From Eledone cirrhosa (lineage: Eukaryota): 64,000 nucleotides of DNA. Where the stretch lies: assembly GCA_964016885.1 (NCBI GenBank), contig OZ024743.1:52886001-52950000 (forward strand). The letters are read 5' to 3'. Below the pieces are notes generated by a model. It made no database searches. It was not told where the DNA came from and was given only the letters and a program-made list of their open reading frames with translations. The position numbers and the translations under genes are program-made. Of the stretch, positions 22,227 to 38,241 are shown in pieces (positions within the stretch are counted from its first letter, which is position 1; each line of letters opens with the position of its first letter).

Positions 22227-23524
22227 CAAAATGTTTTATAAATATTTGACATAACCAAGGATAATATACCTTAATGGTTCAAGTTATCCCTGGAAAGTGA
22301 AGGGAAGAGAAAAAGACCAGATATTTAAAATTATTAAGATGAGTATGCAAATGAGGTTTATGTAAAAGGGATGAAAAAAACCGTTATTTTAGACGCTATG
22401 GAAAATTTAAATAATTATGATAAGTTATTGTATGTGTAGGAAGGAAGAGAGAGGAATAATTAATTTGGGGAAAAAGATTTGTTACCTATATTATGAGTTA
22501 TACTATTGTATACATAATCAATTAGATTATATGAAGAATTATGGTTGTAAGTATTTTTATCTTATTATATTAGGATAGGTTATATGTATATAAATATCTG
22601 TATATATATTAATAAGTTGCGTATGTATTGATTGTTTATATATCAAATATGAGTTACGAAGGAAGTTGAAATTGTATTTTCAAGTTGAGAGAATAAAATA
22701 ATTTGTGGATTCAAAAATTTTGTTCAACATTGAGAATGTTTTAGAATATTGTTAATTTAATGAAGCTATATAGATTATCAAACAAAAAATCGTTATGTTT
22801 TCACGATTGATAATAGTGTTTATGTTTGTAACGATTGAGAAAGGAAAGATAACTCTAATTTTGTTTAATAGAGAAAAAAATTATATATTATTTTGTGTGA
22901 GATCACTTATTTTAGTCAAAAGATGTGTGAATGTTTGGATAACAAAAGAGAGGAAAAAATGTAATGTGTTTTTCAAAGAACTATCTTAAAGAGGATAAAT
23001 TTTCAGAACATCATTTAAAGATTATCAATCTACTCAAAATATATTCTTACAAAAGAATGTGAGAAATTAAAAATAATGTCGGAATTAAAAATAGTGTCGG
23101 AATTAAAAGGTGTAGGAAAATAAAATATTAAATATATATATTAAAAATATTATAAATATTAGAGGTATAAAACATTTCTGAAATATTAAGAATATTAAAG
23201 AATATTAAAATATTTAAAATATTTAAAAATATTTTTTTTAATATTTAAAAAAAATATTAAAAAATAAATATTAAAAAAATATTAAAAAATATAAAAAAAT
23301 TAAAAAAAATTACATTTAAATATTTTAAGGAAATAGGATCATTTTGAAGGTTTATAGGGATATTATAATTTTAAAATAGTTTTGAACGTGGAATTTTGGC
23401 GATGTTTGCAAGAAGAAATTCTGCTTATATATATATATATATATAGTGCAGTTTTAAATCAACATATGTTGATTTAAAACTGCACTATTCACAAGTGTTT
23501 TTTAACCTTCATATCATGTCTCCC

Positions 23525-23595
23525 TATTTTATCTGACGAAAACGCAAATGTCATCGCATGATAATATTTGTTTTTGAAATGCGCATAATAAAATA
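23525..23595 (+). ncRNA. Type I hammerhead ribozyme
   Basis: uauuuuau CUGACGA aaacgcaaau...auuuguuuuu GAAA ugcgca UA auaaaaua. Stem I is 8 bp, stem II pairs, stem III is the palindrome AUGCGCAU; predicted cut after 23587. Confidence 0.8.
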
Positions 23596-24044
23596 CATGG
23601 AACTCTTTTAACCATCTTTTGATCTTATATATTATTTATACTCCAGTCCTACAAACTGTAGAGTGCTACTTATCCGATATCTGCATTGCTTTATTGTACT
23701 ACAATAAAACTCACCTCCTACATATATATATATATATTTATATATATATATATATATATATATATATATATATATATATATATATATACACACACGTATA
23801 TAGTCAACAAGGGAGTGATCTCCCTTACATCTTAGTAGTTTCATTGAAGAGTTTGCCATAATTTCAGTAAGGTGACCTACCTTGACTAATAAAGACCGAT
23901 CGTAAGAATATTAATTAGAATAGGCTTCACCAGAGCCTTGGTTCTTATATCTCCCCCACTTAGCTGAAGGGTCTAATTCACGACTGGGAAAAACTCTTGG
24001 GTAGTGATATATATCGGTGGTCTTCAACCTATTTTCATGATACT

Positions 24045-24365
24045 AACTCCAAATATTACTGAGAGACTTATAGGAGGACCTCACTCCTTAAACTTGTCAT
24101 TACACGATACAGTCCCCAAATATTACTGAGAGACTTATAGGCGGACCTCACTCCTTAAACTTGTCATTACAAGATACAGTCCCCAAATATTACTGAGAGA
24201 CTCGACACCTCGCGGTATGAATCCCAACTATTATTGTGAGATGAGACATAAAAACCTCTTAAACTCAATATTTCATAATATGAACCCCAAATATTACTGA
24301 GAGATGTATAAACACCTCCTTAAACTATTTCATGACATGTGTCCTATCATATTACTGAGACCTTT
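24045..24365. repeat. Degenerate tandem repeat of about 60-70 bp
   Basis: Recurrent ccaaatattactgagagact...ccttaaact motif. Confidence 0.7.
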
Positions 24366-24514
24366 ACACTTCAGAACAGAAAGAATGTACATGTACACAT
24401 TTATTCCTGTTTTCCTTCATAAAAAATGTTATGAAGAATGTCAGGAAGAACTGTCAAACTCTCCTGACAAACGAAATAGGGATTTCCATTTTCCACGACT
24501 CCTCTAAATATTTT

Positions 24515-24604
24515 AGTGAACCCTATGGGCTGGTATATACCAATAGTGAAACCTATGGGCTGGTATATACCAACAGTGAACCCTATGGGCTGGTATATAC
24601 CAAT
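24515..24604. repeat. Three copies of a 30-bp tandem repeat
   Basis: agtgaaccctatgggctggtatataccaat x3. Confidence 0.9.
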
Positions 24605-24840
24605 TCTGGAGGCCATTAATTTGTATCATCGTATATGACAGCAACAGGGCCGAATTTAGGATAGATGAGGCCCTGCATTAGTTATGAGGTCCTTTACTTG
24701 AAAGATATTTGAAAACTTTACCGTAAAATAACTTTTTGGCAGGAAGATAGGACCCCTCCTGGCCAACGGGTCCCTGTGATTAAGCACACCTAAATACAAT
24801 GGTAAATCTGGCACAGCAATTATGTTCATCAGAACCTCAC

Positions 24841-24974
24841 CTTGCTCCACTTGTGTTGGGGTCTTGTGGTCGAGGGGTTTAACTCTAGTCAACGGTGGGG
24901 TTTGGATCTGTCGCTGGAATCTGAACTCAGAACGCAAAATACTGGAACAGATATCGCAAGGTATCTTTGACATT
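24841..24974 (-). CDS. Candidate MMP prodomain-end exon
   Basis: tttttag|A ATG...CAA G|gtgagg; ends in phase 1, giving ...TQVEQ-G-SKW with the next exon. Encodes MSKIPCDICSSILRSEFRFQRQIQTPP.... No clear homology recognised. Confidence 0.45.
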
Positions 24975-35560: not shown

Positions 35561-35877
35561 CTAGAAAGTGGTGACGCTATTCTCAACCTTTGAACTCAAG
35601 TCCGAGACGTTGTCACGTGACATGATCTCGCTACTAGATGTGGAGAGGGTGTCGTTTCCATTTTTGCAAAAGATTTGTGGGTGTAAATTACAATTGTAAA
35701 GTTCGAATATTTAGGTCTTTGGCACAAATATAATGGAGTATTTATTCTTCAGGGCTAAGACTGATGTCTTATTTACCTTTGTCACAAAATACATAACAAA
35801 CAACGACTTAAATGTGAGATAATAAACTTACGGCAGCTTACAATAACATGTCTTTACAAACCAGTAACAGGGAGAAT

Positions 35878-36420
35878 CATGGTTTCTGATTTAGGTACAA
35901 GGCCAACCATTTTCGGGGAAGGGGAAAGTCGATTAAATCAACCCAGTACATTACTGGTACTTTATTTTATCGACCCCGTAAAGATGAAAGGCTCAGAACG
36001 TAAAGTGACGTAACTCTATGCCGTAAAGTTACGTCACTTTACGTTTTGAGTTCAAATCCCACTGGTACTGCCAATCCACCTTTTAGTAGAATAATGATTT
36101 TTAATTTAGGCACAAGGCCAACAATTTGTGGGGAGGGGAACTCGATTATATTGACCCTACTATTTGACTGCTACTGTGTTTTATCGATGTACCAGTCATA
36201 TTCTGAGATCTAATAATTGTTTCTACTTTAGGCACAAGGCCAGCAATTTGAAAGTCGATTAAATCGACCCAGTGCATTACTGGTGCTTTGTTTTAAACGA
36301 CCCCGTAAGGATGAGAGGCAAACATAACTTCGGCGGGATTTGAACTCAGAACATAAAGGGCCGTAACTCTATGCCCCAAAGCAGGGTCTCCGACGCTCTA
36401 CCGAGTCTGCCAATCTATCT
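35878..36420 (-). mobile_element. Cluster of three SINE family 1 copies
   Basis: Same consensus; an internal fold-back near 35995-36060. Confidence 0.85.
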
Positions 36421-37585
36421 CCCTACTGGGGTCTAATAATAGTGATTTTATTAGACATAAACAATTGCACATACAATACATGGAAATTTGGGGAAATGGA
36501 GAAAGATAAACTAGAGAAGGACTAAAGATGTGAGACAAGGATTTTATAAAGTAAACCTACACACACACACACATAACCGTGTGTACACACACACACATAA
36601 CCGTGTGTGTACACACACACACACTTATAACTGTGTGTACACACACTCACATATACATACAAACATAAATACATACATCTAGCCACAAAATGAATACAAA
36701 GCAGAAGCAAACACATAGACATACACACATAAATACATATGTAGGAATAGAAGCACACACACACACACACACACACACACACACACACACATATATATAT
36801 ATATATATATACATACATAAATGTACACATCTCCCCATAAAATGAATGAAAAGCAAATGCAAACACAGATACATATAGAGGTAGAATCACACACACACAC
36901 ACACATATATATATACACACACATATACACATGTATATATACTTGTATATATACATGTGTACATACATGTGTATATACACATGTATACACACATGTATAT
37001 ATACATGTGTATACACAGTGAACCCAGTACAGTCTGATTGACTCTGGAGAGAGGAAAAGAGGTCAAAGGTGAAGGTCATGCAGTGCTTTTTCACCTGTGG
37101 GTTAATGAAATCGTGATGTTCACCTTCACTTAACTGATATATATATACACATATATACACATACATATTCATACATATACATACACGTACATACACGTAC
37201 CTATACACACATAGACATACACATATATACACGTACATACACGTACCTATACATACATAGACATACACATATATGCACGTACATACACGTACTTATACTT
37301 ACAGATAAATGGAAACCAACAAATGCATTCGCATATAAAACATATGCATATACATGCACACACATACATAGCCATACATATCCGTACACATACACATACA
37401 TCAATACATATACATATACATACATAAACGTACACACACAAACATATATATATATATTCATATATATATATATGAATTACTTCATTTATATATATATATA
37501 TATATATATATATATATATATATATATATATATATATACGATATTAAACAAATGGAAACTATATTTATATTTATAAAACCATATT

Positions 37586-37651
37586 TATTTCGTTATATAT
37601 ATTTCTGGGATATCATATTAAAAATATGTTATGCCTTCCTCAGACAAAATA
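37586..37651 (-). ncRNA. Type I hammerhead ribozyme (left arm of a 370-bp palindrome)
   Basis: uauuuugu CUGAGGA aggcauaacauauuuuuaauaugauauccca GAAA uauaua UA acgaaaua. Confidence 0.7.
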
Positions 37652-37790
37652 CAATACATAAGCTGTTTTATAAATAATTAGTGACATACCTTGTGATAAT
37701 GCAACTTCCTTTTAAAAAGTTGATTTTTAAAAGGAAGTTGCATTATCACAAGGTATGTCACTAATTATTTATAAAACAGCTTATGTATTG

Positions 37791-37856
37791 TATTTTGTCT
37801 GAGGAAGGCATAACATATTTTTAATATGATATCCCAGAAATATATATAACGAAATA
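37791..37856 (+). ncRNA. Type I hammerhead ribozyme (right arm of the palindrome)
   Basis: Identical to the 37586-37651 motif, on the opposite strand. Confidence 0.7.
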
Positions 37857-38241
37857 AATATGGTTTTATAAATATAAATATAGTTTCCATTTGTTTAATA
37901 TCGTAAACCTACTCCAGAAACTGTTGAGTGCTTTAAAATCAGTTATAAAATATTTACTCGTTGTAACCCAACAATCTTAAATAAAACTTTTGCATATATA
38001 TATATATATATATATATATATATATATATATATATATATATATATATATATATATATATATATATATATATCAATGCATATAAATACAAAGATACATACA
38101 CACAGATATTTTTTTATAGAAAAAAATTATAAAAATATTATTTTCTAAAATTAGTTCTAACCATAAAACCATTTTAATTATTGAATAATTTATAATTTAA
38201 TATAAAAATTGAATTAAAAGTTTTTTTCAGTTGTGAATATA

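Follow-up and report, generated by a model that had tools for sequence, protein, structure and literature searches.

Hammerhead-bearing fold-back units at TA tracts in Eledone cirrhosa: likely truncated ends of Penelope-like elements, with a candidate stem-loop at a common boundary

The short hammerhead-bearing units that are scattered over a 14.6-kb span (23443-38070) of Eledone cirrhosa DNA are almost certainly dead, 5'-truncated 3' ends of Penelope-like elements (PLEs), composed of the part called the pseudo-long terminal repeat (pLTR). They lie in a 64-kb window (64,000 nucleotides of contig OZ024743.1, assembly GCA_964016885.1; all coordinates given here are window positions) that consists of repeat-rich DNA of animal type, with satellites, repeats resembling short interspersed elements (SINEs) and 63 TA tracts of at least six units. 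The units probably belong to the Hydra clade and most likely come from several Hydra-clade families; the explanation as a whole, an origin as truncated PLE 3' ends, we hold to be highly likely. The hammerhead would then be a passenger from the parent element, and the copies are probably neither self-cleaving nor replicating. PLE remnants account for about 4.7 kb of the span, where they touch 11 of the 14 TA loci (16 of 33 in the window).

Five such units had been listed in an earlier note on this DNA. All are present close to where it placed them, measure 217-455 nt and have the fold-back that it ascribed to them (Table 1). They are also noncoding, as it had said: a tblastn search with 13 PLE homologues, which were of Hydra type only, so that other PLE clades were not searched for, matched two open reading frame (ORF) remnants and nothing else. 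The architecture that the note had proposed, with an inverted duplicate, a hammerhead, a tail and (TA)n following one another on one strand, stood in part. It describes 23443-23721 and 37537-37993, but fails in 31380-31600 because only half a hammerhead is present there, in 26010-26300 because there is no tail, and in 25715-25985 because the core sits only in the inverted arm. Taken singly, an intact type I core is found in four of the five units (31380-31600 holds the 3' half only) and a tail likewise in four, both arms of 26010-26300 stopping at the same point.

Table 1. PLE-derived units, pieces and ORF remnants in the window
Feature	Coordinates	Strand	Description
Older tail-less copy, E3/E5 family	22127..22260	-	Decayed core, no fold-back
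E1	23443..23721	+	(TA)n on both sides; 5'-junction fold-back, intact type I hammerhead (23525-23595), bulged stem-loop in tail (23640-23667)
Unit	25420..25660	-	Hammerhead lacking stem III (core 25593), tail stem-loop 25481-25509, no fold-back, (TA)n end
E2	25706..25982	+	Inverted arms of 82 bp, tail stem-loop 25896-25938
E3	26010..26300	.	Near-complete palindrome, hammerhead on each strand, no tail, (TA)n on both sides
Tail-only piece	26973..27105	+	Stem-loop 27005-27033, flanked by two TA tracts
5'-truncated Hydra-clade PLE	27152..27880	-	CxCx5C linker, frameshifted GIY-YIG, 3' untranslated region, intact hammerhead 27183-27222, 36 nt, (TA)n
Broken 5'-truncated Hydra-clade reverse transcriptase and GIY-YIG ORF	29306..31175	-	Stops and frameshifts
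E4a	31381..31597	-	Inverted arms with 19-nt spacer, half hammerhead-like fold, stem-loop tail, (TA)n on both sides
E4b, second E4-family copy	31622..31823	-	87% identical, same TA tract as E4a
E5	37537..37993	+	Inverted arms with a hammerhead in each, 88-nt tail, stem-loop 37911-37932, (TA)n on both sides
Two tail-only pieces	40365..40581	.	Face each other across (CA)n(TA)n(TG)n, (TA)n outside; stem-loop 40373-40396
Tail-only piece, 65 nt	44972..45036	-	Between TA tracts, begins 8 nt before stem-loop
Second E2-family copy	59398..59594	+	95%, cut 4 nt before hammerhead core, no fold-back, beside (TC)n(TA)n

The arms differ widely in length and in identity. Those of E5 (37537-37905) are identical over 182 bp, with hammerheads at 37791-37856 on the plus strand and 37586-37651 on the minus strand. 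The arms of E3 (26036-26273) extend over at least 114 bp at 94% identity, with nine differences in 141 columns; its minus-strand hammerhead (-26099) is intact and the other (+26210) has GAAC. In both E3 and E5 the spacer between the arms is only 5-10 nt. The E2 arms (25706-25890) are 93% identical, differing at 6 of 82 columns, and its core is confined to the tail-less inverted arm (25758-25810, minus strand) because the tail-bearing arm begins in loop II. In E4a the arms (31458-31600) match at 95% over 62 bp, with 3 of 62 columns differing. No CUGANGA box was found in 31380-31600 by the descriptor scan; reading of the sequence shows that it keeps GAA, a near-palindromic stem III and then C. 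The string CUGA-A-UGA in the spacer of this unit was tried as a core and rejected: stem I would not abut it and pair 15.2-16.2 would be C-C. E1 has a fold-back (23443-23488) with 23-bp arms and no mismatches that duplicates only its first 21 nt or so, whereas the other four fold-backs extend to the 3' region. A second perfect hairpin, with 25-bp arms, stands at the 5' junction of E4b (31767-31823).

Hammerheads were sought with a type I descriptor (stem I of at least four pairs, CUGANGA, GAAA, stem III of at least four pairs, UH) that had been tuned after a first look at the window. It returned six strict cores in 64 kb (+23533, -25806, -26099, -27217, +37799 and -37643), compared with a mean of 0.01 and a maximum of 1 in 100 block-wise dinucleotide shuffles, and a seventh (+26210) is gained if GAAC is allowed. 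Every strict core has an 8-nt palindromic stem III, with one or more unpaired bases after A9, as in the PLE type of hammerhead (PMC4209133). The core at -27217 and the unit at 25420-25660 were absent from the earlier list. All six strict cores of the 64-kb window fall in the 14-kb stretch 23533-37799, a stretch that has the appearance of a local sink, entered time and again by TA-targeted insertions.

The (TA)n flank that had been claimed for the five units is present in each of them, and the association with TA is strong. When all 14 units that could be delimited are considered, 11 have a TA run of at least 10 nt within 24 nt of the 3' end, a count with some circularity in it, since it was the neighbouring TA that first drew notice to several of the units; the background for such a run near a position is 1.4% of the window and 2.6% in 22-46 kb. 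Three units fall short: at 22127-22260 the TA amounts to 7 nt, and both pieces at 40365-40581 have (CA)n at their ends. Among the strict hammerheads, which were found without reference to TA, five of six have (TA)5 no more than 150 nt downstream of them, a placement shared by 9% of the whole window and by 15% of the interval 22-40 kb. TA runs of at least 10 nt occupy both flanks in seven of the 14 units, and the units have no TA array of their own; together these observations fit insertion into existing tracts, and the spreading of TA tracts that the earlier note had raised as a further role is conjectural.

Two remnants coding for reverse transcriptase (RT) and GIY-YIG endonuclease sequences, both on the minus strand (27152-27880 and 29306-31175), lie within the span and had been missed by the earlier note. 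They lend support to its suggestion that heavily truncated pieces of a GIY-YIG Penelope element lie at (TA)n. The larger has RT motifs followed by GIY-YIG (Pfam PF01541, E 2e-4, 21.9 bits, just under the cut-off of 22.6) and is collinear with 13 homologues of 522-934 aa at 28-42% identity. The smaller retains only the endonuclease part of the ORF, and in it ORF, hammerhead and (TA)n are physically joined. A search downstream of the larger ORF for an intact hammerhead or tail motif gave decayed look-alikes only. The Hydra clade has been defined by a CxCx5C linker, a GIY-YIG domain that lacks the CCHH motif, CxxC and CxH around the conserved E and N, RWK and DKT motifs, canonical hammerheads and insertion at (TA)n (Craig et al. 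2021, PMC8557442). Both remnants have the CxCx5C linker and a CxxC, and both lack CCHH: there is one Cys between GIY and YIG in the larger and none in the smaller. A C-terminal CxH is present in the larger and absent in the smaller. RWK/RWR and DKT/DKS occur in nine of the 13 homologues, including the best matches, the remnants being truncated downstream of these motifs. Pfam searches with two full-length homologues and a PDB search with one produced nothing informative. Between the RT thumb and the linker of the larger remnant (29740-29900) there is an Asn/Gln-rich insertion of about 60 codons that is absent in the homologues shown.

In its general plan the architecture is not new. Inverted copies and a one-sided tail of 30-40 bp are general PLE traits (PMC8557442), seen here as an inverted 5'-truncated copy at the 5' end and an optional tail at one end. 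According to the same source, (TA)n is given for 26 of 27 listed Hydra families, the hammerheads lie about 90-430 nt from the 3' end, and one family has a 5'-truncated inverted copy at its 5' end. Hydra-clade elements (Penelope-13_HM, Hydra-2_Amil, Hydra-2_Ajap and Hydra-1_Obim) thus provide counterparts for the C-terminal GIY-YIG, the CxCx5C linker, the absence of CCHH, the 3' hammerhead, (TA)n, the inverted copy and the optional tail. They differ from the present units in that the latter are ORF-less ends of 60-460 nt from several families, with tails of 60-90 nt rather than 30-40, and in that a common tail stem-loop marks a boundary here. Since the 3' position of the hammerhead, the targeting of (TA)n and the 5'-truncated copy in inverted orientation have all been published for this clade, the architecture is ordinary for PLEs and already described for the Hydra clade; the stem-loop is the one component that was not found in print. 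Recently inserted Penelope families have been reported from an octopus (PMC13282606), and the accessible text of that report gives no such structural detail.

Several observations count against the assignment to the Hydra clade. None of the five units is joined to an ORF, and blastn matched none of them to either ORF remnant at the DNA level, which leaves proximity and the tail motif as the grounds for the clade; remnant 27152-27880, which does carry a hammerhead, is itself without the stem-loop; and (TA)n targeting occurs in other PLE clades too (PMC8557442). The units might accordingly be truncated ends from Neptune, Naiad or another TA-targeting clade. Besides the missing DNA link to the Hydra remnants, this explanation can draw on the (TA)n listed for many Naiad families, on a linker motif proposed to give Neptune the same bias, and on stem III sequences that are unlike those tabulated for Hydra families (all PMC8557442). 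Naiads, however, are described as lacking canonical hammerheads (PMC8557442), which are present here, and their endonuclease is N-terminal while that of the local ORF is C-terminal. The tail stem-loop, moreover, can be seen in published Hydra ends, a comparison that did not extend to Neptune ends. We therefore think a source outside the Hydra clade rather improbable.

The earlier note had regarded the units as non-autonomous and retrozyme-like, that is, as elements that are transcribed, self-cleaved, circularised and re-inserted by a PLE enzyme. The resemblance is real: animal non-LTR retrozymes are also small, noncoding and probably PLE-derived, their size, low GC and type I hammerheads are matched here (PMC7229834), a preprint derives retrozymes from PLE pLTRs (bioRxiv 10.64898/2026.07.22.740005), and E4a and E4b lie head to tail. 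By definition, however, retrozymes consist of direct tandem units, each with a hammerhead, that give rise to circular RNA (bioRxiv 10.64898/2026.07.22.740005; PMC7229834; PMC6765202), whereas the units here are inverted or single. Tandem Repeats Finder detects no direct tandem hammerhead array, paired hammerheads are on opposite strands, and E4a and E4b lack a core and are separated by (TA)n. The 5' ends vary within families (E3, E5 and 22127-22260; E2 and 59398-59594; E4a and E4b), and in the folds predicted for read-through RNAs of E2, E3 and E5 (-126 to -283 kcal/mol) the long arms pair over the hammerhead and would bury it in a duplex. Without direct tandem hammerheads and with variable 5' ends, the units do not qualify as retrozymes, and an origin of that kind is very unlikely; the retrozyme-like part of the earlier interpretation is not supported. 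Nor, with two or three loci per family, is there the fixed structure and 5' end of a non-autonomous PLE family. Cervera and De la Pena (2014, PMC4209133) attributed PLE-type hammerheads with a palindromic stem III to truncated PLEs; most of these were single, and some formed pairs on opposite strands, separated by 100-700 bp. The units resemble them in all three respects; the published examples are from Cercyon and other families, and a TA association is not seen in the accessible text of that study.

The tails of E1, E2, E4a, E4b, E5 and 25420-25660 are dissimilar in sequence but have in common a bulged stem-loop, in which RCTC is followed by an inner hairpin, a 2-3 nt bulge and GAGYRCT. This pattern occurs at 11 sites, compared with 3.1 in shuffled sequence (maximum 9 in 200 shuffles), and it also marks three pieces that consist of tail alone (26973-27105, 40365-40440 and 44972-45036), all of which have TA 5' of them. 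In an alignment of eight sequences, a 7-pair structure drawn by eye is paired in 96% of cells and has compensatory changes in four of its seven pairs; its covariation score was reached by none of 500 shuffles, and slid controls scored lower. At E under 0.02, a covariance model found the eight sequences from which it was built and only two others, both of them sister copies from the input families; its matches included no new family. When the ends of six published Hydra consensus sequences were inspected by eye, the fold was found in Hydra-2_Amil and Hydra-2_Ajap and a variant of it in Hydra-1_Crog. GAGYRCT is followed by C at 7 of 11 unit sites (for example 25932, 27027, 31432, 40390 and 45011), which makes an interrupted DNA palindrome; this could be read by the endonuclease as DNA and not as RNA.

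The stem-loop coincides with a boundary that is common to the families. All six tail-less arms stop 5-10 nt before it, and two tail-only pieces begin about 8 nt before it. We refer to this boundary, 5-10 nt upstream of the stem-loop, as site B, and to the stem-loop as a candidate signal for an RT start or nick site. A number of points reduce the force of this evidence. The structure was drawn from the same sequences on which it was scored; RNAalifold, given a looser alignment of ten sequences, finds only the four outer pairs at -0.29 kcal/mol; and the predicted stability of the stem-loop is low (-2 to -10 kcal/mol). The motif sites at 1555 and 50426 look like chance, and the fold is unclear in the other three of the six published Hydra ends, two of which stop 30-45 nt after the hammerhead as the 27152-27880 copy does. 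Three of the six arm end points were set against a relative of only 73-75% similarity, and four are of one family. No description of the stem-loop was found in the literature covered, which took in few subscription papers, Repbase reports or bioRxiv supplements, so its absence from print is not established; neither 'stem-loop' nor 'hairpin' appears as a word in the text of PMC8557442 or its supplement.

The origin of PLE inverted repeats, tails and microsatellite bias has been named as an open question (PMC8557442). A mechanism that employs two cDNAs would account for most of the forms seen here, and we place it just on the probable side. The RT/GIY-YIG protein would nick the (TA)n tract, whose strands read alike, and cDNA would be primed on the element RNA. 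A first cDNA beginning at a distal site, A, would include the 60-90 nt tail, while a second, with the other strand as primer, would begin a short way 5' of the stem-loop, at site B. The two would terminate prematurely, in many cases within the hammerhead or close to it, and head-to-head joining would leave a tail-less inverted arm, a direct arm and a tail. Starts at A and B would yield E2, E4a and E5, and two starts at B the tail-less palindrome E3. A alone would give 25420-25660, 59398-59594, E1 and E4b; B alone would give 22127-22260 and probably 27152-27880; and synthesis from A to B would produce the tail-only pieces. Five arm starts (both arms of E2, 59398-59594 and both arms of E4a) lie within the hammerhead and none is at the cleavage site, which suggests stalling of the RT at structure.

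Biochemical work on a Poseidon PLE, PAc of Anolis, provides a partial parallel (Frangieh et al. 2024, PMC11167929). In vitro, both target strands were nicked and extended, two internal RNA start sites bounded the tail, a stem-loop lay at a start site, and hammerhead cleavage was not needed for insertion. The Poseidon element differs in its clade and in its target, which is ATT and not (TA)n; its stem-loop is AC-rich and lies inside the ORF start, and the accessible text deals with the tail and not with an inverted arm.

Alternatively, the fold-backs could each be the product of a single cDNA that folds back at its 3' end and copies itself as far as a block at site B, the palindrome centre being trimmed later; second priming would then be unnecessary. 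The hairpins of E1 and 31767-31823, perfect copies of the 5'-most 23-25 nt, and the short spacers of E3 and E5 are in keeping with this, and for the two very short hairpins a snap-back of the cDNA end fits better than two cDNAs do. E2 is harder to explain in this way. Comparison with its sister at 59398-59594 shows that the arm without the tail continues for about 21 nt beyond the 5' limit of the arm with it, and that the two overlap by 2 nt where they join. Some element sequence is present in the former and missing from the latter; copying of a single cDNA does not give this asymmetry directly, which favours two cDNAs. Tail-less ends without a fold-back also exist (22127-22260 and probably 27152-27880), so that site B serves as an end point independently of any fold-back. 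As a general origin of the fold-backs, snap-back is possible but unlikely. Two considerations tell against the two-cDNA mechanism in turn: later asymmetric loss at the palindrome centre could possibly explain E2, and the in vitro data on two start sites come from Poseidon, another clade.

The fold-backs might also be chimeras formed during amplification or assembly. In favour of this, E1, E5 and the hairpin at 31767-31823 have no mismatches, and structures of this kind are said to trouble assemblies (PMC8557442). The artefact is unlikely because in E2, E3 and E4 the two arms are no longer identical to each other; arms end, in addition, at one boundary that does not depend on family, and the same layout has been published (PMC4209133, PMC8557442). 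We regard a chimeric origin of the fold-backs in general as scarcely credible, while the three perfect hairpins are not cleared of it by sequence alone.

Other features of the window deserve brief mention. The pieces at 40365-40581 are arranged tail to tail, a geometry opposite to that of the five units. On the minus strand at 62576-62596, two CUGANGA boxes are separated by 20 nt and followed, some 200 nt downstream, by a TA tract, with no recognisable stem III; this is possibly a decayed unit. A separate family has an ATT-repeat end that abuts (TA)n. At 34805-35028 a TA tract of 87 nt is flanked by two such ends of 68 bp, which point towards each other and are 96% alike, and a third end lies at 54097-54142. 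The right-hand copy holds a minus-strand ORF with a gag-like CCHC zinc knuckle (35024-35545), for which a search among longer proteins returned no homologues. A 39-bp tandem array at 5870-6988 flips its orientation at 6761/6762, satellites of a 25-bp unit (7314-17622, about 413 copies) and a 53-bp unit (18626-21511, about 54 copies) follow, and a (GTG)n-type array of 2.6 kb at 41917-44539 has an extreme strand skew. A SINE-like unit of 195 bp is present in 2.8 tandem copies at 39136-39670. Partial tRNA-like Rfam matches at 18455-18512, 26720-26777, 40693-40748 and 63285-63342 are probably the heads of tRNA-derived SINEs.

Two aspects are of modest value, the density of the remnants and the stem-loop. 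The 147 matches of an Rfam scan of the window (E up to 1) included no hammerhead family and were almost entirely miRNA models on microsatellites; Rfam is blind to these hammerheads, and such DNA is thus probably under-annotated. Of interest, if correct, would be a stem-loop common to the Hydra clade: a 4-bp RCTC/GAGY stem, a 2-3 nt bulge, a variable inner stem and RCT, located about 45-65 nt downstream of the hammerhead. Tentatively, and with the balance tilted somewhat against it, we propose that this stem-loop acts in cis to place the RT/GIY-YIG protein and fixes the boundary 5-10 nt upstream, with twin priming at (TA)n. Tail-less inverted arms would then end, and tail-only inserts begin, at the stem-loop boundary, and inverted pLTRs would arise by twin priming from two equivalent (TA)n strands and two RNA start sites. 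Any RNA with the cassette of about 60 nt might be written into TA microsatellites. The stem-loop and its fixed boundary make a specific prediction and offer a minimal RNA for in vitro testing.

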